The notes beneath the pieces were generated by a model. The model saw only the letters and a list, made by a program, of their open reading frames with translations, was not told the DNA's origin and did not search any database. Below, piece by piece: positions 3,018-20,781 of a DNA stretch of 64,000 nt; positions within the stretch are counted from its first letter, which is position 1; the number at the start of each line of letters is the position of its first letter. The translations under genes were made by a program, and so were the position numbers. Source of the stretch: a virus (Duplodnaviria > Caudoviricetes); the IMG/VR virus record IMGVR_UViG_3300044838_000031, positions 197 through 64,196 of that record, one strand, 5' to 3'.

Positions 3018-3259
3018 CGCGGGACGCCTTCGGGATGGCGCCGATTAAGGATGTGGACTAGCCGGTTGTGGATGCGTGCAGCGATCGAGCGTTGCGGTGT
3101 GTAGTTCTCGCCGCGGTAGCAGATGACGAACGGGTATTCATCAGTTTCATCAAGGCGAACTCCGAAGCATTCGTCGCCAATCACGACGTAGTCGCAAAGG
3201 GGTGTTTTACTGTCGAAGTGATCAATGGCCCACAGGATGGCGCGGGTGTTGGCGTTCAT
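3014..3259 (-). CDS. hypothetical protein coupled to the RHH gene
   Basis: 81 aa ORF, ATGA overlap with the RHH gene. Confidence 0.5.
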   Translation of the reverse strand: MNANTRAILWAIDHFDSKTPLCDYVVIGDECFGVRLDETDEYPFVICYRGENYTPQRSIAARIHNRLVHILNRRHPEGVPR

Positions 3260-13985: not shown

Positions 13986-14194
13986 GCCGAAGCTTCGAGA
14001 ACCTCAAGCGCGGCGTCCACATCGTGCTGGTAGACGCGGTAACTACGTCCCCCCGGCAGGCGGATGGCGGTGAGTCGGCCGTCTTTGATCCACCGTTGGA
14101 CGGTGCGGGGACTGGTGCCGAGCTGGTCAGCAACCTGAGCGACGGTGAGAGGCTGATTCGTAGGTTTACGATCATAAATATGGTGATCTGCCAT
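13982..14194 (-). CDS. Cro/excisionase-like HTH protein
   Basis: LTVAQVADQLGTSPRTVQRWIKDGRLTAIRLPGGRSYRV; divergent from repressor. Confidence 0.85.
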   Translation of the reverse strand: MADHHIYDRKPTNQPLTVAQVADQLGTSPRTVQRWIKDGRLTAIRLPGGRSYRVYQHDVDAALEVLEASA

Positions 14195-14202
14195 AGCGTC
14201 AG

Positions 14203-14232
14203 AATGTATGGCGAGTTACCATAGTGTGTCAA
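14203..14232 (-). promoter_or_regulatory. SigA-like early lytic promoter
   Basis: TTGACA-18 bp-TACATT, 8 nt before the ATG; overlaps a GCCATA..TATGGC inverted repeat (candidate operator). Confidence 0.7.
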
Positions 14233-14246
14233 GTACGACATACCTA

Positions 14247-14276
14247 TTGGCGCGAATGGCGGTTATGGCTTATCGT
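14247..14276 (+). promoter_or_regulatory. repressor promoter (leaderless transcript)
   Basis: TTGGCG-18 bp-TATCGT, 7 nt before ATG at 14284. Confidence 0.55.
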
Positions 14277-14283
14277 GACGTCT

Positions 14284-14679
14284 ATGACGAGCACACCTAA
14301 CGAGGGGCTAGACCCCGTAAAACAGGGAAACGCGCTCATCGGAGAGCGGGTACATACCCTCATGTGGCGCGGCAGCCGTACCCAAAAGCAGCTCGCCGCG
14401 ATCCTGAACGTCGATCAGGGATCGATCTCAAACCGCTTGCGCGGGAAGACAAACTGGTCGGCCGTGGACGTTTCCGTAGTAGCGCAATGGCTGGGCGTGC
14501 CGGTCACCGACATCATGCCCGAGGTTGAACTAGGGTCGGACCCTCCTGAGCCCGGCGCCGCTGGATATCGCGTCGCCGGGCTTCCGCTCCCCTGGGTGTA
14601 TTCGAAACACCAACCCTTCGGTCAACGGTTTAGGGCGTGGTGGCTGCCGTCGCTGGCACCGGTATATAAGGCGGCGTGA
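14284..14679 (+). CDS. immunity repressor (XRE HTH) with internal attP and C-terminal degron-like tail
   Basis: TQKQLAAILNVDQGSISNRLRGKTNW HTH; LPWVYSKHQPFG is a translated antisense tRNA 3' half; ends VYKAA. Confidence 0.85.
   Translation: MTSTPNEGLDPVKQGNALIGERVHTLMWRGSRTQKQLAAILNVDQGSISNRLRGKTNWSAVDVSVVAQWLGVPVTDIMPEVELGSDPPEPGAAGYRVAGLPLPWVYSKHQPFGQRFRAWWLPSLAPVYKAA
14587..14630 (-). other. attP core resembling the 3' half of tRNA-Asn(GTT)
   Basis: Minus strand CCGTTGACCGAAGGGTT-GGTGT-TTCGAAT-ACACC-CAGGGGAG: anticodon-loop remnant, T-arm hairpin, acceptor 3' strand. Confidence 0.75.
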
Positions 14680-14852
14680 TGAGCGGCGTGAGGTGGCATT
14701 ACTGGCGGGTCAATCCTTGTGAGGTTCATGTTGTGCCGGAGTCTGAACGTACCCAGCATATGCCGTGTGGGTGTCCGTGCGGGGCTGATTTAGATGCGAT
14801 GTCGGATGGTGTTGTGAGGGTGACGCACCGTGAGTTTGGTGGGGCGGCGTGA
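14679..14852 (+). CDS. small Cys/His-rich protein (57 aa)
   Basis: ATG overlaps repressor stop; CGCPCG; ends GGAA. Confidence 0.5.
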   Translation: MSGVRWHYWRVNPCEVHVVPESERTQHMPCGCPCGADLDAMSDGVVRVTHREFGGAA

Positions 14853-14860
14853 TAAGCAGC

Positions 14861-14998
14861 ATGGCGCCTACTGATGTGTGTCGACGGTGCGGTCATACCC
14901 GTGACCGTCATTGGTACAGCGGGTTTGTGTGCATCGAATGCGGCTGCACACGGGGCCGAATCGCAGCAGCGTTCCGGCCTCTGGCCTCAGCAGCGTAG
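14861..14998 (+). CDS. small zinc-finger protein (45 aa)
   Basis: CRRCGH...CIECGC; ends SAA. Confidence 0.5.
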   Translation: MAPTDVCRRCGHTRDRHWYSGFVCIECGCTRGRIAAAFRPLASAA

Positions 14999-15010
14999 GA
15001 GAATAGAAGC

Positions 15011-15301
15011 ATGATTAATCTGCGGATCGGGCGCATAGGCCAGGTGTTCGCGCCAGGTTACGGATGGTGCTTGCGCTGTAAGACGCCGTGGCTATTCGTA
15101 AGCTGGCACGATACCCAATACGGCGCGGACGGTAACGGCTGCCTGCCGTTATGCGAGAAGTGTTGGGGCGAACTCACGCCGGCACAGAGATTGCCGTTCT
15201 ACCGCCAGTTGATTGAGTCCTGGCATGAGCGACCCGGTCGCGGGTTGACGCTCGATGAGGAATGGCCGCTAGTTGAATCTGCTGTGATGAGTGACCACTA
15301 A
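15011..15301 (+). CDS. cassette ORF, zinc-binding hypothetical protein
   Basis: AGGAG RBS; CLRC...CEKC; stop TAA is part of the repeat site. Confidence 0.65.
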   Translation: MINLRIGRIGQVFAPGYGWCLRCKTPWLFVSWHDTQYGADGNGCLPLCEKCWGELTPAQRLPFYRQLIESWHERPGRGLTLDEEWPLVESAVMSDH

Positions 15302-15340
15302 CCTGTTGGTTAACAGTCTGAGTGCTAGAGGATGGAAAGC

Positions 15341-15694
15341 ATGATTGACACACCAAACGAGCCAGCGGCAGGCGCGCGCAACGGACGATGGGTAAAGCTC
15401 GGCCATGTCGGCGTCGACTCCGCTTCCATCGGCATCACCGATCTACTCATGGGCGTCAAAAACTCGGTGTTGAACAACGTCGGCGCCGCCGAGTCGCGCT
15501 ATGCAGTGCCAGGCTCGGAGTTCGCGGGCGACTGGGGCACAGGTATCCGTTTCTGGGCCGGCTTTGGCGATGGTGGTTACGACGTATGGGGCTGGATCGT
15601 CGATTACGGCGACGACGAAGTAGACGAGCGAGTCGCCCAGATCGTCGTCACGATGATCAGCGCCGACGACCTGGACGATTGGCATGCAGGCTGA
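15341..15694 (+). CDS. cassette ORF, DUF4241-like protein
   Basis: LGHVGVDSASIGITD...AGFGDGGYDVW...VAQIVV pattern. Confidence 0.65.
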   Translation: MIDTPNEPAAGARNGRWVKLGHVGVDSASIGITDLLMGVKNSVLNNVGAAESRYAVPGSEFAGDWGTGIRFWAGFGDGGYDVWGWIVDYGDDEVDERVAQIVVTMISADDLDDWHAG

Positions 15695-15751
15695 CAGTTG
15701 GCCCGATTACCGACCACTAACTGTTTGGTTACCGACGGAAAGGATGAGCAC

Positions 15752-15946
15752 ATGAGCGACGCGATCTATCACGAATCGGTGCCGCTGTGCCCGCACATCA
15801 TGGGGTATTTCCGCAATGACATACCGCCCGAAGAACACCAGATCCTCACCGGCGAATGTGAGGAGTGCGGACCCGTCAGCGCGACAGCACCCCATCCTCG
15901 AATCGAGCGGCCTGGTTTCGGCTGCGGCATCAGAGCAGAACTCTAA
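15752..15946 (+). CDS. cassette ORF, Cys-containing hypothetical protein
   Basis: GAAAGGA RBS right after a site; stop lies within the next site. Confidence 0.6.
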   Translation: MSDAIYHESVPLCPHIMGYFRNDIPPEEHQILTGECEECGPVSATAPHPRIERPGFGCGIRAEL

Positions 15947-15978
15947 CCGGCTTGGTTAATGACCTAGAAAGGAAAAAC

Positions 15979-16371
15979 ATGGGAACGATGACATTTTGGG
16001 ATCGGCTCTGGCCGTGGCTGCGCCACCCTCTCGACAATGTGAGCGGGACTATCGCAGTGCGGTGGCTCGATCGGCACGACATGGTCATGGAGTATGCGGA
16101 CAAGTACAACGTCATGCACGCATCGTGGAAATCGTCAGAGCAGAACGAAGATTACGTCGAATACCCCATAAGTTCGGACTCACAGACTACTACCTGGACG
16201 CTGCCCAATCCCGACACCGTGTCTGATGGCTTTCGATTTGCGATTCGGACTCCAAAAGGCGACGAGGCGTGGGTATGCGTCTGGGAAGGCAAGCATGCGT
16301 TCTGGGAACGGGTCAGTATTGATCCCGTAACCAAGGAAGGTGAAACGAAAATGAGGATTGTTAACAGTTGA
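15979..16371 (+). CDS. cassette ORF, hypothetical protein
   Basis: GAAAGGA RBS after a site; ends across half-site GTTAACAG. Confidence 0.6.
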   Translation: MGTMTFWDRLWPWLRHPLDNVSGTIAVRWLDRHDMVMEYADKYNVMHASWKSSEQNEDYVEYPISSDSQTTTWTLPNPDTVSDGFRFAIRTPKGDEAWVCVWEGKHAFWERVSIDPVTKEGETKMRIVNS

Positions 16372-16380
16372 GAGGAAGAC

Positions 16381-16521
16381 ATGCAGGTCGACAAAGCTCT
16401 TGACGAACTCAAGTGGATTCACAAGGGGTTGGAAGACGCCCAGCAATGGCACGACTGGGATGAGGTCGTGCGGCTACGCGGGCGGGTAAGCCACGCGATG
16501 GCACTCCTGAATCCATCGTGA
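16381..16521 (+). CDS. cassette ORF, 46-aa hypothetical protein
   Basis: GAGAGGAAG RBS; MQVDKALDELKWIHKG...; followed by GACCACTAAC left arm. Confidence 0.5.
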   Translation: MQVDKALDELKWIHKGLEDAQQWHDWDEVVRLRGRVSHAMALLNPS

Positions 16522-16538
16522 CCACTAACCGTGGCGTC

Positions 16539-16709
16539 GTGAGCGACGAACATGACCGCCGAGCGCGGGAGTACATCGAGGACGTTCTTAGGATCAACAC
16601 GGAGCACGGGATACGTAACACTGAGGACCAACGCATCATCGAGGCTGCTGTCGCGGATGTCGCTGGCTGGGCGCGGCGACTTCACCAGTTGGCTAAAACA
16701 GAACCCTAA
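16539..16709 (+). CDS. cassette ORF, hypothetical protein
   Basis: Stop lies within the site at 16707; start uncertain. Confidence 0.45.
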   Translation: MSDEHDRRAREYIEDVLRINTEHGIRNTEDQRIIEAAVADVAGWARRLHQLAKTEP

Positions 16710-16751
16710 CCGGCTTAGTTAACGACGAGTCATCGGAAATAGGAGACACAA

Positions 16752-17222
16752 ATGGGCTATGACATGTACATCGTCGACGGCGGCGGAAACGAGATCGACG
16801 AAAGCGGCGATAGCTTCTACCTGCACCGCAACATATGGGGCGGCCAGCGCCTTGCGGACGCCCTAGTCGATGCCGGAATCGGGTACTGGCCGACCGGGCC
16901 GCAGCGCGAATATCCACGCGAGCCGGATGACGCCGAGTGGGGGGACTACAACTACTCACACGAGCTGCCACCAGCCAACCCGGCAGCCACGCAGTATCAG
17001 GCGACGATGTTTCGGCACCTTCAAGACACCCGCGACGAGCGTCCCGGCATCTCGGTCTACAAGCTGTGCGGCTCCAATGACGGCTGGTGGGTGACAAAGG
17101 TTGAGTGCGAGTCGGCGTTGAAGATGTGGGAGCAGGCCGGCAATCCCGAGGTTGACCAGTACGGCGACGTTATCCCGTTTCTCCGCGCGGCATCTAAGCA
17201 CGACGGATTCAGGGTTTGGTGA
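16752..17222 (+). CDS. cassette ORF, hypothetical protein
   Basis: AGGAG RBS; MGYDMY...GFRVW 156 aa; bounded by two sites. Confidence 0.75.
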   Translation: MGYDMYIVDGGGNEIDESGDSFYLHRNIWGGQRLADALVDAGIGYWPTGPQREYPREPDDAEWGDYNYSHELPPANPAATQYQATMFRHLQDTRDERPGISVYKLCGSNDGWWVTKVECESALKMWEQAGNPEVDQYGDVIPFLRAASKHDGFRVW

Positions 17223-17262
17223 CCGTTAATCTCGTAGTGTTAACAGTCTGAGAGAGGACAGC

Positions 17263-17457
17263 ATGAGGTATCTGTACCAGCGGGGACGCGGTGCGAAGCG
17301 TCGAGTCATGCATCTGTGCCGCTTCGATCAGTTCGGAAACGCGACTATGCAGCCGATTTGTGGCCGCAGCAACGGACTGCACTTCGATACAACGTGCAAC
17401 CTTCCGTTAGGTCAGCACTTATGCAAGCGGTGCCGAGCTGACGAGAGGATGAGATGA
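17263..17457 (+). CDS. cassette ORF, small Cys-rich protein
   Basis: GAGAGGA RBS after a site; ICGR...CKRC. Confidence 0.55.
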   Translation: MRYLYQRGRGAKRRVMHLCRFDQFGNATMQPICGRSNGLHFDTTCNLPLGQHLCKRCRADERMR

Positions 17458-17505
17458 GCGACGATCAGAAGTGCGCGGGCTGCGACGGTCCGCTATCCGA
17501 GGAGG

Positions 17506-17709
17506 ATGGCATCACCCCTCGTCATGGACGATGCCAGCCTCCGTGAGTATTACTGCGCGACGTGCAAACCACCAGGTACCGGCTACACGATCAGCGACCT
17601 GCAGCAGATGCGCGATGACGGCCAAGCCGAACGCGCCAAGTACGAGATGTCGCTGCTGGACAAAGGTCGGCCCAGACGTGTACTTCGCGGTCAAAGGTCG
17701 ACCCGATGA
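17506..17709 (+). CDS. cassette ORF, hypothetical protein
   Basis: GAGGAGG RBS; frame assignment uncertain. Confidence 0.4.
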   Translation: MASPLVMDDASLREYYCATCKPPGTGYTISDLQQMRDDGQAERAKYEMSLLDKGRPRRVLRGQRSTR

Positions 17710-17759
17710 CGACCTTTAACCGTATGGGGTTAACGGTTTGAAGCAGAAAGGAGGGCGTA

Positions 17760-17921
17760 ATGCCTGAGCCAGAGTGTGACGGTAAATGTGCTCGCGACGA
17801 ATGCATCTGCCCGGTTGACGACGCCTACGACTGGGTTGACGACGATTCGATGAGTGCAGAAGAGACCATGCGCCGATTCGAAGCGCTCGGACCTGAGGAG
17901 ACTGTAGGACCACCGCCATGA
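17760..17921 (+). CDS. cassette ORF, acidic 53-aa protein
   Basis: GAAAGGAGG RBS after a site; ATGA overlap with next gene. Confidence 0.5.
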   Translation: MPEPECDGKCARDECICPVDDAYDWVDDDSMSAEETMRRFEALGPEETVGPPP

Positions 17922-18244
17922 GAATTTCCATAGACCCGAATGTCCGCGTCGAGAACAACTGGACCTACTCGGGTTTCGAGGACGTGTTCGGCGATGTTCA
18001 CTTGCTCAATCCCGGCGACTGGGTGACGGCGATGTGGGCGGAAACCGATCAGATTTTTGACGCCAAGGTTGTGTGCTTGGAATTCGAGCGGCGAATCATC
18101 ACGCTCGCTGTCGACTGGAAATCCGTGCGAGTGGATCAGAGGCCGATCATCGTTGGCACGGTCACTATTTCGTCAGGTGGCCGCACTAGACGGCTGCCGC
18201 TAGGCGAAGCTATCTCTGTACCGATAGTGGGCCTTAATGGATAG
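17918..18244 (+). CDS. cassette ORF, hypothetical protein
   Basis: 108 aa, MRISIDPNVRV, beta-rich. Confidence 0.6.
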   Translation: MRISIDPNVRVENNWTYSGFEDVFGDVHLLNPGDWVTAMWAETDQIFDAKVVCLEFERRIITLAVDWKSVRVDQRPIIVGTVTISSGGRTRRLPLGEAISVPIVGLNG

Positions 18245-18497
18245 CGAGCCGTATGACGAGACCGGCACCACCGTCGAGCAGTTCGACGCGATGTGGAAAG
18301 AAGCAGAGCCAGTCGAGACTGTTGTAACGCCTCCGGGTAAATACGACTTCAAGACGCCGACCGACCTTGAGACACGAGTGCAGAACCTTATCAACTCGTG
18401 GCGACATTCGGTCGATGAGGCTTTCGGCGACGACGAGGGCTCGATCACCATCATGGCCGACCAGCTTGAGCGCGTTCTACGCGGACCAGAACTCTAA
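18237..18497 (+). CDS. cassette ORF, hypothetical protein
   Basis: 86 aa; stop within the site at 18495. Confidence 0.6.
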   Translation: MDSEPYDETGTTVEQFDAMWKEAEPVETVVTPPGKYDFKTPTDLETRVQNLINSWRHSVDEAFGDDEGSITIMADQLERVLRGPEL

Positions 18498-18530
18498 CCT
18501 AGGGGTTAACAGTCTGAGAAAGGATGACAT

Positions 18531-18758
18531 GTGAAACTTTCACGAACGAAACTGCGTGATCTGCGGCAAATCCTCGATCACTTCGCCCATCTTGCGCGCG
18601 AGTCCGCGCACGCGCATGCTCCCGCTGAGGGTGATCCGGCTAGCCCCTTCCATCAATACCTGATCGGAAAAGCTGAGGGACTGGAAGCAGCCCGCTACGA
18701 ACTCGACTTGCTGCGGGAAAAGCTAGCCGACACCAAGGCCGTAATTCGCCTGAGGTAG
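18531..18758 (+). CDS. cassette ORF, hypothetical protein
   Basis: GAAAGGA RBS after a site. Confidence 0.55.
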   Translation: MKLSRTKLRDLRQILDHFAHLARESAHAHAPAEGDPASPFHQYLIGKAEGLEAARYELDLLREKLADTKAVIRLR

Positions 18759-18768
18759 AGAGGAAAAC

Positions 18769-19059
18769 ATGAATGACGACGGTGATGAGTTCGGCTATGA
18801 GCTGGTGATGCCGTTTCTGCCAGTGCAATCCAAGGGTGGCCCGCACGATGATGCCGCCTATGTGGCTGGCTATGAGATGGGTCTACTGGACGCGCAATTG
18901 GGCAACAGCGAGTACGACCAGGGCCGCGCCATCCACGGGGAGAACCGCGAGCAAGCCGACCTCATCGCGATGCGCCACGGCTACCTCGCCGAATTCACCA
19001 ATGACAGCGGCGACGGATGGGTCCACATGAAGGTCCACGAGGTGCCCGTAAACCGATAA
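18769..19059 (+). CDS. cassette ORF, hypothetical protein
   Basis: GAGAGG RBS; stop within the site at 19057. Confidence 0.65.
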   Translation: MNDDGDEFGYELVMPFLPVQSKGGPHDDAAYVAGYEMGLLDAQLGNSEYDQGRAIHGENREQADLIAMRHGYLAEFTNDSGDGWVHMKVHEVPVNR

Positions 19060-19120
19060 CCGTGCGGTTACCGGTTTGGCTGTCGCAGTGGGGGCGATTT
19101 TTCGGAGAGGAAAAGGAGAA

Positions 19121-19396
19121 ATGATGACGGTGACCGAGCCGGGATCGATTGATATCCCGTTGAGGGGCGATCTGCGTGAGTGCGTCTTATATGAACTCGA
19201 CAGAATCATCGGCGAGTTGGATGCGCCGTTCACTACGGGCCTGATCCCGCGAACGCTGGTCGCGCATCTGCGAGGTGTTGTTGATGCGTGGCCCAACGTT
19301 CAGCAGCACATTTGGAAAGAACCCGATGGGACTATCCGCACTCTCGGCCAGGAGCGGGCTGGCGTTTACGGCTTTGGAGAGGCAGAGAAGCGGTGA
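19121..19396 (+). CDS. hypothetical protein
   Basis: AAGGAG RBS; 91 aa. Confidence 0.55.
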   Translation: MMTVTEPGSIDIPLRGDLRECVLYELDRIIGELDAPFTTGLIPRTLVAHLRGVVDAWPNVQQHIWKEPDGTIRTLGQERAGVYGFGEAEKR

Positions 19397-19533
19397 CCCG
19401 TGATGAGGCTATCGACCACATCTGGGACTTGTCGGATGGTATGGCTGCCGAATTTTTTTGCACCAGCGCCCAAGAAGACGAGCTCAGGCAGAAGACACGC
19501 GAGGCACTCGCCGCACTTGGGGTTCTGAAATGA
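19393..19533 (+). CDS. hypothetical protein (46 aa)
   Basis: GTGA overlap with upstream gene. Confidence 0.4.
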   Translation: MTRDEAIDHIWDLSDGMAAEFFCTSAQEDELRQKTREALAALGVLK

Positions 19534-19656
19534 GGATCGATCCGGCGAAAGTTCTAGCTGAAGCGGCAGCCATTACTAGACGCGAATCTGTCAAGGAACT
19601 GTCAACTTATCCGAGAACCGTCCGATCGAAAGTTACCTGAGAGTAGGCACAGTGTC

Positions 19657-20508
19657 ATGGATCACATACATGCGCTGTCCTACTCATTGCCCGGCCAATG
19701 GGACACAGCACTCGACGGATGGATAACCTGGCTGATCGCCTCCGGAACCTCGACGGCGACCCGAAAAACACGCCGGGCTCATGTGCGGCGGATCGCCCGC
19801 GAACTGGATTCTCAGCATCCCCGCGACATCACTGATGCGCAGCTGCTGGCGATCCTCGGCCGGCCGGAGTATTCGATGGAGCATCGCCGCGGCCTGCGCG
19901 CATCGCTGGCCTCGTTTTACCGCTGGTCCCTCGAACAAGGTGTCGTCGACGAAGACCCGACGTTGACGCTCCCCCACATCAAGGCGGCGCTCGGCGCCCC
20001 CAAACCCGCCACCGACGACATCTGGCGCGCCCTCCTCGAACAAGCTAGCCCCCGCACCGCACTCATGGCACGACTCGCCTGCGAAGCCGGCCTTCGGCGC
20101 GCCGAAGTCGCCTGCGTACACAGTGATGACCTGAACGCCGGCATCGGCGGCGCCGAACTGATTGTCCACGGCAAAGGATCGAAGCAGCGCGTCGTCCCGA
20201 TCACAGTCTCCCTGGCCACGGCGATCGCCAAAGCTCAGCCATTCGGCGGCTTCCTGTTCCCGGGGAAGATCGACGGGCATGCCAGCCCGGACTGGGTTGG
20301 GCGCCTCGTCAGTCGGGTGATGCCGCCCGGCTGGAGCATCCACAAGCTCCGACATCGGGCGGCCAGTCGTGGGTATGCTGGCACCGGCAACCTGAGAGCT
20401 GTGCAAGAATTTCTCGGCCACACATCGGTGGCTACGACACAGCGTTATGTGGCAGTGTCGTCAGCAGAGATCAGGCTCATCTCCGACGCTGCCGGCACCG
20501 CCTCCTGA
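19657..20508 (+). CDS. int: tyrosine integrase lacking an N-terminal arm-binding domain
   Basis: Full catalytic set R(GLRRAE), K(HGKGSK), HxxR(HKLRH), H(LGH), Y(TQRY); only 283 aa. Confidence 0.92.
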   Translation: MDHIHALSYSLPGQWDTALDGWITWLIASGTSTATRKTRRAHVRRIARELDSQHPRDITDAQLLAILGRPEYSMEHRRGLRASLASFYRWSLEQGVVDEDPTLTLPHIKAALGAPKPATDDIWRALLEQASPRTALMARLACEAGLRRAEVACVHSDDLNAGIGGAELIVHGKGSKQRVVPITVSLATAIAKAQPFGGFLFPGKIDGHASPDWVGRLVSRVMPPGWSIHKLRHRAASRGYAGTGNLRAVQEFLGHTSVATTQRYVAVSSAEIRLISDAAGTAS

Positions 20509-20510
20509 AA

Positions 20511-20577
20511 CGTCACGTGACGGTTACGACCGCACGGTTACCGGTCTTCGATACGGGTCAGTTTAACCCCTAGATAC
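20511..20577. repeat. cluster of site-like elements downstream of int
   Basis: Palindrome CGTCACGTGACG; ACCGCACGGTTA and TTAACCCCTAG are reverse complements of parts of the sites at 19057 and 18495. Confidence 0.55.
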
Positions 20578-20583
20578 TGGCGC

Positions 20584-20781
20584 TTATCTCTTGCCTACCC
20601 ATTTGCGTACGGTCATACGGTCCACACCGAGTAGTTCAGCGATGTCGCGTTGGGAGTAGTCGGCGTCTGCGGCTTCGATGGCCGCGTCCTTGGCGGCGTG
20701 CCGCTTTACCTCTACGTCGCTGCGCGCTGCGGTGAAAGCGTTACCTGTAGCGCGCCATCGTTCCTCCGTGGGAGTGCCCAT
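20584..20781 (-). CDS. small HTH protein
   Basis: YSQRDIAELLGVDRMTVRKWVGK. Confidence 0.75.
   Translation of the reverse strand: MGTPTEERWRATGNAFTAARSDVEVKRHAAKDAAIEAADADYSQRDIAELLGVDRMTVRKWVGKR

Follow-up and report, generated by a model that had tools for sequence, protein, structure and literature searches.

A phage integrase gene usually lies close to the attachment site on which its product acts, and the locus described here raises the question of why about 5 kb of small genes should lie between the two, with a short inverted repeat at many of the gene boundaries. The stretch of DNA that we analyzed (the window, 64,000 nucleotides) is all of IMG/VR record IMGVR_UViG_3300044838_000031 except its first 196 bases. 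The record is 64196 b long and is rated complete by CheckV, and the window is a complete temperate actinobacteriophage genome, Mycobacterium-like and with integration-dependent immunity. The order on its plus strand is a helix-turn-helix (HTH) repressor gene at 14224-14679 that contains the phage attachment site (attP), a run of small genes, and a tyrosine integrase gene (int) at 19657-20508. The repeats copy the core of the integrase's own attachment site. With a rough probability of 0.45, we propose that they are lox-like sites recognized by the integrase (Int) and that they are the joints at which genes are gained, lost and exchanged, in an arrangement that is not an IntI/attC integron. The features on which this proposal is built are:

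14224-14679, plus strand: immunity repressor gene (Pfam HTH_3, PHROG repressor families)
14603-14632, plus strand: attP core, with tRNA-derived arm CGAAACACCAACC, spacer CTTC and phage-specific (P') arm GGTCAACGGTTTA
15011-19533, plus strand: array of about 16 small co-oriented genes, g3 to g18, called from open reading frames (ORFs), codon-position GC and ribosome-binding sites
15291-15320, plus strand: site 1, GTGACCACTAACC-TGTT-GGTTAACAGTCTG
15710-15739, plus strand: site 2, left arm CCGACCACTAAC, spacer TGTTT, right arm GGTTACCGACGG
15936-15966, plus strand: site 3, CAGAACTCTAACC-GGCTT-GGTTAATGACCTA
16359-16371, plus strand: right arm alone, TGTTAACAGTTGA, within the end of g6 and directly before g7
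16518-16530, plus strand: left arm alone, GTGACCACTAACC, at the g7 stop and g8 start
16699-16729, plus strand: site 4, CAGAACCCTAACC-GGCTT-AGTTAACGACGAG, a near-duplicate of site 3
17219-17251, plus strand: site 5 (TAAT variant), GTGACCGTTAATC-TCGTAG-TGTTAACAGTCTGA
17709-17740, plus strand: site 6, ACGACCTTTAACC-GTATGG-GGTTAACGGTTTG; the right arm resembles the attP P' arm
18487-18516, plus strand: site 7, CAGAACTCTAACC-TAGG-GGTTAACAGTCTG
19049-19078, plus strand: site 8, TAAACCGATAACC-GTGC-GGTTACCGGTTTG; the right arm resembles the attP P' arm
19657-20508, plus strand: arm-less (simple, Xer-like) tyrosine integrase, 283 aa (PF00589 at residues 129-269)
20519-20577, no strand assigned: degenerate site copies between the converging int and HTH genes, with right arm GGTTACCGGTCTT at 20536-48 and TTAACCCCTAG at 20564-74

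The motif TAAC-N6-8-GTTA, first noticed in a first-pass annotation made from the sequence, has seven exact matches (at 15299, 15718, 15944, 16707, 17717, 18495 and 19057; span 15299-19070). The whole 64196-b record contains the same seven, and a control pattern written backwards matches it once. Shuffling the window gave a mean of 0.55 matches (sd 0.80, maximum 4) and none of 100 shuffles reached 7. That annotation listed eight sites; seven match the motif exactly, and the one at 17227 is a variant, TAAT-N8-GTTA, with one mismatch. The partial copies that it placed at 16360 and 16526 correspond to the right arm alone at 16359-16371 and the left arm alone at 16518-16530.

The full repeat unit is 30 bp, with inverted 13-nt arms (half-site consensus CAGACCGCTAACC) around a spacer of 4-6 nt. 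The strongest half-site positions are ACC at 4-6 and TAA(C/T)C at 9-13. Among the eight full sites of the window the spacer is 4 nt in four, and 5, 5, 6 and 6 nt in the others. Thirty copies from other genomes all have a 4-nt spacer, having been drawn with a fixed-spacing pattern, and 27 of these, all intergenic and with att sites left out, were kept to make a half-site matrix. Results from scanning about 128,000 window positions with this matrix showed 16 half-sites at or above 12 bits. Fourteen of them lie in 15291-20548, which agrees with the earlier expectation that the site would be confined to 14.6-20.6 kb, and the others start at 2829 and 3043. These two lone half-sites (2829-2841, 14.5 bits; 3043-3055, 12.5 bits) are inverted relative to each other, 214 bp apart, in the early region.

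Each unit sits between a stop codon and the next ribosome-binding site, into which the right arm runs. The upstream ORF ends in the TAA of the site at 15299, 15944, 16707, 17717, 18495 and 19057, that is, at six of the eight full sites, where at least five cases had been claimed. The genes upstream of 15718 and 17227 end earlier, in TGA. Because the left arm usually provides the upstream stop, several unrelated proteins end in Glu-Leu. As had also been described, a new ORF follows soon after the site: its start lies 22-35 nt past the right arm at eight of nine junctions and 55 nt past it at the remaining one.

The repeat and the attP core, CGAAACACCAACC-CTTC-GGTCAACGGTTTA, have the same arm-4-arm layout. 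A shared architecture had been proposed before, and the likeness is closer than was first noted: both 13-nt arms match the arms of attP and of the bacterial attachment site (attB), at the same 4-nt spacing. The P' arm of the window scores 11.1 bits on the site matrix, a score found at about 1.5e-4 of window positions, and the attP arms of 12 relatives have p values of 1e-4 to 1e-2. In one relative, locus L313 of genome G404, the phage-specific P arm AAACCTGTAATC reaches 15.2 bits, and 12 nt of it recur unchanged in the left arm of a palindrome that lies 118 bp downstream. In another, L327, int is preceded by a site that matches the locus's own attP core, in inverted orientation, at 20 of 25 positions. 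Across loci, an attP core matched its own attP-int interval better than it matched the intervals of others (permutation p = 0.009 with the full core and p = 0.012 with the P' arm; the 17 loci compared are not independent).

A pattern of the site, ACCNNTAAYCNNNNGRTTA, matched 156 of 401 genomes sampled from the GTDB family that holds Mycobacterium and Corynebacterium (Mycobacteriaceae-family; the tally includes the unpublished G072), nearly always once per genome and in few conserved sequences. Six matches were sampled. Four were tRNA-Asn(GTT) genes, one was a tRNA-Thr, and one was an attL-like partial tRNA-Asn at the far end of an insert of about 43 kb. The site variants GGTTA and GATTA are both found in tRNA-Asn at the corresponding place. 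These matches support the idea that the intergenic repeat is a symmetrized mimic of a stretch of tRNA-Asn from the T stem to the anticodon loop, and this stretch is where this integrase family crosses over. Genome G047 (L516 231-260, L517 3974-4003) carries an insert of about 43 kb with a different, canonical integrase, flanked by direct repeats that are the tRNA-Asn 3' half up to the anticodon loop; therefore, the same tRNA-Asn spot is used by unrelated integrases.

The integrase has no Pfam domain besides PF00589, and its best NCBIfam matches are Xer-type models (the top one XerC), at scores far below their cut-offs. Its relatives share 66-88% identity with it; a search of 401 family and 27 genus genomes found nothing above 52% identity. 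Scores on the IntI models are low (TIGR02249, 45.1 bits against a cut-off of 265; NF011946, 24.7 bits against a cut-off of 435) and the sites are 30 bp and not of the attC type, in line with the earlier statement that the system is unrelated to IntI/attC. The Brujita integrase was reportedly called 'promiscuous' by Lunt and Hatfull in 2016, and its attP is said to have an extra half-site.

Several observations point to exchange at the sites. Left arms of two types, A (GTGACCACTAACC) and B (CAGAACTCTAACC), and right arms of two types, a (GGTTAACAGTCTGAG) and b (GGTTA(A/C)CGAC...), occur in the window in all four combinations: A-a at 15299, A-b at 15718, B-b at 15944 and 16707, and B-a at 18495. 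Sites 3 and 4 share the spacer GGCTT and enclose g6 to g8, and g7, inside this block, is flanked by the lone right arm and the lone left arm. Arrays of the same site family were found in two other genomes, G409 (five sites in 2.3 kb) and G411 (six or seven sites). These two share a spacer, CCGT, together with the right arm and ribosome-binding site (24 of 25 nt), and their left arms and the genes on either side differ. The 31 canonical sites have lox/FRT/dif-type architecture, with 13-nt arms and 4 nt between the pentamers, equivalent to 6 nt between TAAC and GTTA. They use only 16 spacers, compared with about 27 expected by chance (minimum 19 in 20,000 trials). CGAT recurs six times and TGTT four times, and GTGC and TAGG are common to the window and G411. 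The g11 homologue in G411 ends at TAACC-TAGG-GGTTA, and the window has that spacer three genes further on.

At least two genes also recur in other arrays. Locus L314 has a 74-aa zinc-finger gene directly behind int with two flanking sites, and an 81%-identical homologue lies inside the G411 array; a search with the zinc-finger protein matched G411 and L314 only. In a soil-metagenome contig of 2.3-fold depth, 17716 is joined to 18495, exactly from one site to another, and 5 letters are shared at the joint. The evidence is weak, since the shorter side measures only 25 nt and the sites are themselves repetitive. A contig of a relative, also from a soil metagenome, has attP (14622) joined to the start of int (19651). 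Within the window, TTAACCCCTAG at 20564-20574 is an 11-bp inverted copy of the center of site 7 (18499-18509). Comparison of 20519-20548 with site 8 (19049-19078) shows the right arm repeated directly and the spacer inverted.

Comparison with relatives shows how unusual the attP-int interval is, as the first-pass annotation had suspected. A tRNA T arm was sought upstream of int in 36 loci and was plausible in 19. The distance from this T arm to int is 130-307 bp in 17 of the 19, and the 5062 bp of the window is the extreme. The distance is 706 bp in L314, with two small genes between, and 1310 bp in L315, with about four genes and three sites (TAACC-CGAT-GGTTA, TAACC-TGTT-GGTTA and TAACC-TCGT-GGTTG). 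An apparent 942-bp gap in L341 proved to be a host tRNA cluster. Nearly every close relative has a palindrome upstream of int: those with no array (L222, L223, L224, L226, L313 and L314) have one, about 100-150 bp from it, and several of them have further copies downstream of int.

G409, G411 and a third genome, G410, were found with a palindrome pattern in IMG/VR (104 matches). About 20 GC-rich matches (L400 4605, L457 6263, L425 446 and about 17 more IMG/VR loci) were set aside as a false-positive class, in which a near-identical 30-bp palindrome lies in a conserved coding stretch, an ORF of about 283-304 aa, of unrelated phages. Searching IMG/VR for the exact right-arm 14-mer gave at least 115 single chance matches and no array, and the left-arm B pattern found only G411 plus five single matches. 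With blastn, the G411 array matched a methyltransferase gene only and the G409 array matched nothing.

Taken as recombination sites, the repeats would work as follows. They would be 30-bp lox-like copies of the att core, with inverted 13-nt arms like those that flank the crossover in attB and attP and with a spacer that differs from site to site. Int would bind these predicted sites, and small accessory genes could be gained, lost and exchanged there. Donors could be circles or the genomes of other phages, in either case with a site whose spacer is the same, and the outcome would be the 5-kb array between attP and int. Since neighboring sites have different spacers, the array should resist internal deletion. 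As with heterospecific lox sites, exchange would still be possible with sites elsewhere whose spacers match. Binding of the sites by Int, catalysis there and any activity today are predictions of this scheme; the sites, their confinement, their likeness to the att arms, the variable gene content of relatives and the re-assorted arms are observed. A bolder form of the proposal is that an arm-less, Cre-like Int uses heterospecific lox-like mimics of tRNA-Asn for single-gene exchange between co-resident phages and prophages, as an independent phage counterpart of the integron, with orphan arrays being the equivalent of attC clusters that have no integrase. We regard this form as doubtful.

A number of results weigh against recombination by Int at these sites. 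A full or half site is present at only 10 of about 17 gene junctions. Seven window junctions have none, including the one before int; there is none between g18 and int or near attP. Spacers of 5-6 nt in four of the eight window sites are odd for one recombinase. The distance of 22-35 nt to the start codon fits an expression signal equally well. Some sites are orthologous and therefore the spacer statistics are inflated. The covariation test between attP and its interval gave 0.07 in a third cut and 0.08, not significant, in a first version with shorter intervals. Because relatives have sites on both sides of int, the sites are not generally confined to the attP-int interval. The cargo genes of the window are absent from the loci of the closest Int relatives. 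The cargo itself is 16-19 small proteins with no known function. In G411 the site downstream of the zinc-finger gene is missing and the genes abut, so sites come and go independently of genes.

The breakpoints and the neighbors of other arrays belong on the same side. Breakpoints against relatives had been predicted to fall exactly at the sites. Gene content does vary, arms are re-assorted and genes recur, but two breakpoints are off-site. Homology with L222 starts at 19575, where L222 has a palindrome and the window has none. A soil-metagenome contig (X1) about 99% identical to the repressor gene is without 329 bp, 14664-14992, and its ends (14663/14993) are not at a site; the ORFs called in this segment have poor codon-position GC. 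No excision product or circle was seen in the data examined save the one weak contig joint with a 25-nt side. Each of the G409 and G411 arrays has a canonical integrase gene within 1-3 kb. These integrases (374 and 434 aa) share about 22-30% identity with each other and with the window Int, over parts only, and are unrelated beyond family level. Neither a match to a profile of the arm-less family nor a tRNA-like attP was found in the G409 and G411 records, which are 65-66% complete. The suggestion that the integrase had been co-opted to capture and shuffle cassettes at att-derived sites thus gains from the att mimicry, the re-assorted arms and the recurrence of genes, and loses from the presence of the same arrays beside unrelated integrases.

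These points bear on what else the repeats could be. They could be start- or stop-associated palindromes, like the extended start-associated sequences (ESAS) of Cluster K mycobacteriophages, read for gene expression by some factor other than Int; the conserved 30-45 bp would then also serve as short homologies for ordinary recombination and so produce mosaic joints. The fixed position between stop codon and ribosome-binding site fits this, as do the spacing to the start codon at eight of nine junctions, the conservation of right arm plus ribosome-binding site before different genes across genomes, and the presence of arrays beside three unrelated integrases. There is also a precedent: in the available text of PMC3203893, the ESAS are described as 17-bp inverted repeats, imperfect and separated by 4-13 bp, that precede start codons and have no known function. 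Like the window repeats, the start-associated sequences (SAS) and ESAS described there vary in spacer and precede the starts of non-structural genes in one orientation. The sequence of the window repeats is different, however: the 13-bp SAS motif as given in that text has no match at two or fewer mismatches, and the window repeats are att-core copies grouped near the integrase gene. For an expression signal, likeness to the tRNA-Asn attB in both arms and in spacing would have no explanation. The single palindrome of the relatives lies about 110 nt from the int start and hence is not start-associated, and no protein is common to all site-bearing genomes in the genome parts compared. On balance we consider this explanation unlikely, if the leading one among the alternatives. 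A little less probable again is that Int binds the sites to regulate, either by blocking or attenuating the repressor-array-int transcript (autoregulation, in a stoperator-like way) or by being buffered on them as decoys. The premise would be that Int accumulating early in infection occupies the sites. This would account for the likeness to att arms, for the single palindrome kept upstream of int in array-free relatives, and for all sites being in one operon that ends in int. It also suits the finding that the spacers are unlike the attP/attB spacer CTTC, a difference that makes exchange with att unlikely. Left unexplained would be the re-assorted arms, the shared spacer alleles, the half-sites around g7 and the recurrence of genes, and arrays are also found beside unrelated integrases.

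Binding by the repressor was rejected, since the rep-cro region (14100-14300) has no site or half-site at or above 10 bits, and the 12-bp operator palindrome of phage BPs has three loose matches in the window and none in the array. The idea that the repeats act as RNA hairpins, whether as terminators, attenuators or mRNA stabilizers between cistrons, draws on their being palindromic, on one G410 copy lying between converging genes, and on the good folding of two window sites and the relatives' single palindromes (-11.3 to -15.2 kcal/mol, z -2.6 to -7.4; -11.4 to -15.2 kcal/mol for the near-perfect single palindromes alone). By contrast, six of the eight window sites, at -0.1 to -7.3 kcal/mol (z -1.5 to +1.6), show no folding beyond that of shuffles and still keep their arms, there are C/A mismatches at the variable arm position, and a terminator scan called none of the sites, with two terminator-like structures elsewhere in the region compared with 5.3 expected. 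Conservation of sequence without conservation of pairing points to a protein that reads each half-site on DNA, and we consider a hairpin role very improbable. Somewhat less remote, and still improbable, is that the sites are inert scars with no present function, that is, attL or attB junctions captured on excision together with elements stacked at tRNA-Asn by tandem accretion. The array is exactly where DNA beside attL would be captured. Sites 6 and 8 pair a B-like left arm with a P'-like right arm, as in attL, and sites 1, 5 and 7 carry GGTTAACAG or TGTTAACAG, as in attB. Scars of this kind would be expected to look otherwise in three respects: no site has the tRNA spacer CTTC or remaining tRNA, the arms are well kept with the same spacer alleles in unrelated genomes, and the cargo resembles phage genes and not host flank.

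As a comparison, integrons also have a tyrosine recombinase gene by an array of short, co-oriented, mostly promoterless genes with imperfect palindromic sites between them. Their arrays likewise vary in length among relatives and also exist without a cognate recombinase (clusters of attC sites lacking integron integrases, CALIN). The attC sites are long imperfect palindromes that are read as folded single strands, whereas the window sites are 30-bp mimics of the tRNA attB, most of which do not fold better than shuffles. The window further differs in having an Xer-like phage Int and a site at about half of the junctions, with no circles seen. A 'phage analogue of an integron', the term first used for this locus, is thus a fair description of how it may work, and it fails as a statement of membership on both the integrase and the type of site. 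Evidence for cassettes as site-bounded units is the recurrence in G411 of the gene that is flanked by two sites in L314 and the one weak contig joint, set against breakpoints elsewhere that are off-site. Classical IntI/attC elements have reportedly been found in phages. In tandem accretion, as in the cis-mobilizable elements (CIMEs) of the ICESt1/ICESt3 type, internal att-like sites separate accessory blocks beside an integrase, at a tRNA-type site. Here, unlike in that case, the genome is a phage in attP form, the units are single small genes, and the spacers differ from those of att and from each other. The lox, FRT and dif sites have two inverted arms of 11-13 nt and a short asymmetric center, and different centers would not cross. 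The window spacer, by comparison, varies (4, 5 or 6 nt between pentamers).

The attP core (14603-14632) is part of the 3' end of the repressor gene, and that 3' end is the reverse complement of the 3' half of a tRNA-Asn, with the anticodon GTT kept, so both the position and the tRNA-Asn target first suggested for it hold. Acceptor and T arm run in reverse complement within 14586-14622, with the T arm GGTGT-ATTCGAA-ACACC at 14595-14611, followed by AACC, CTTC and GGTCAACGG. In six provirus relatives the match to the repressor stops at residues 103-121 and a tRNA follows; for these, ARAGORN called tRNA-Lys in three, a tRNA at the record end in one and none in two. A provirus whose Int is 69% identical to that of the window terminates ...CGAACCTCCAACCCTTCGGTTAA; a provirus of a relative terminates ...CAACCCTTCGGTTAA, and the G408 provirus terminates ...GGTTAA, a stop in the repressor frame. 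Therefore, the repressor frame stops in the anticodon loop once the phage is integrated.

Integration-dependent immunity with an arm-less integrase, as first proposed, is thus supported by Pfam, NCBIfam and the truncated provirus repressors. The window has attP inside the repressor gene and an integrase without an arm-binding N-terminal domain; truncation of the repressor by integration is seen in the relatives only, and repressor and integrase are not adjacent (5062 bp separate int from the attP T arm). In the available text on the integration-dependent immunity of BPs, Brujita and Charlie (PMC4557955, PMC7194413), these phages likewise have attP within the repressor gene, an arm-less integrase and a truncated prophage repressor. 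They differ in having repressor and integrase adjacent, where the window has them 5 kb apart with extra att-like sites. A variant of this kind of immunity is seen in L313 (9342-9834; its genome, G404, has direct terminal repeats). Its 164-aa repressor reads through the reverse complement of the tRNA-Asn 5' half and ends ...PMAA, and the usual case uses the tRNA 3' half. Because L313 uses the 5' half, the phage would need to supply a tRNA 5' half and a promoter after integration.

The first-pass count of about 19 small ORFs between repressor and integrase was roughly right. Codon-position GC backs about 16 of them (g3-g18) and makes the ORFs at 14676-15014 and 19530-19640 doubtful. Pfam assigned no family to 17 cargo ORFs, and PHROG placed two cargo ORFs in families of unknown function. 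The co-orientation of the array is plain, and a promoter scan found only a divergent early promoter at 14232-14203. The g11 region (17454-17719) is split across three overlapping frames, and its homologues in G411 and in MooMoo (gene 34) align over two of them; the window's copy of g11 probably carries a frameshift. One further gene lies just beyond int:

20584-20781, minus strand: small HTH gene, 65 aa (Pfam HTH_23), converging on int

The 65-aa protein is 86% identical in L313 and 53% identical in G411 and is conserved beside the site arrays of both. In G411 its gene diverges from the site array, and it is a candidate regulator.

Structural and lysis genes occupy the minus strand from about 24 to 64 kb. 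Megablast against named phages found no close DNA relative. With distant blastn, the matches to named relatives were scattered single-gene matches only (the repressor and the g4, g9, g10 and g11 homologues), from M. abscessus prophages, MooMoo and Nocardia NTR1, so that among named DNA sequences the closest are genes of mycobacteriophages and M. abscessus prophages, one gene per match. Only two soil-metagenome DNA runs contain 5-6% of the window's words, as contigs, with no RNA run among those listed; stretches that these contigs leave uncovered carry no information either way.

The literature library searched gave no description of arrays of att-mimic sites beside an arm-less phage integrase. 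How phages take up and shuffle single small genes at gene boundaries is an old question about mosaic genomes, usually answered by illegitimate recombination with subsequent selection or by short boundary sequences that are conserved. The present locus suggests a concrete and testable alternative, in which the boundary elements copy the integrase's own target. If Int acts on the sites, then this would be a mechanism by which accessory genes beside the integration module turn over rapidly, and it would explain the high variability beside int in temperate actinophages. The sites would then also be a natural orthogonal set of recombination sites for a simple integrase, which would be useful in mycobacterial genetics. 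If the sites are regulatory instead, they would represent a new kind of integrase-linked operator array.

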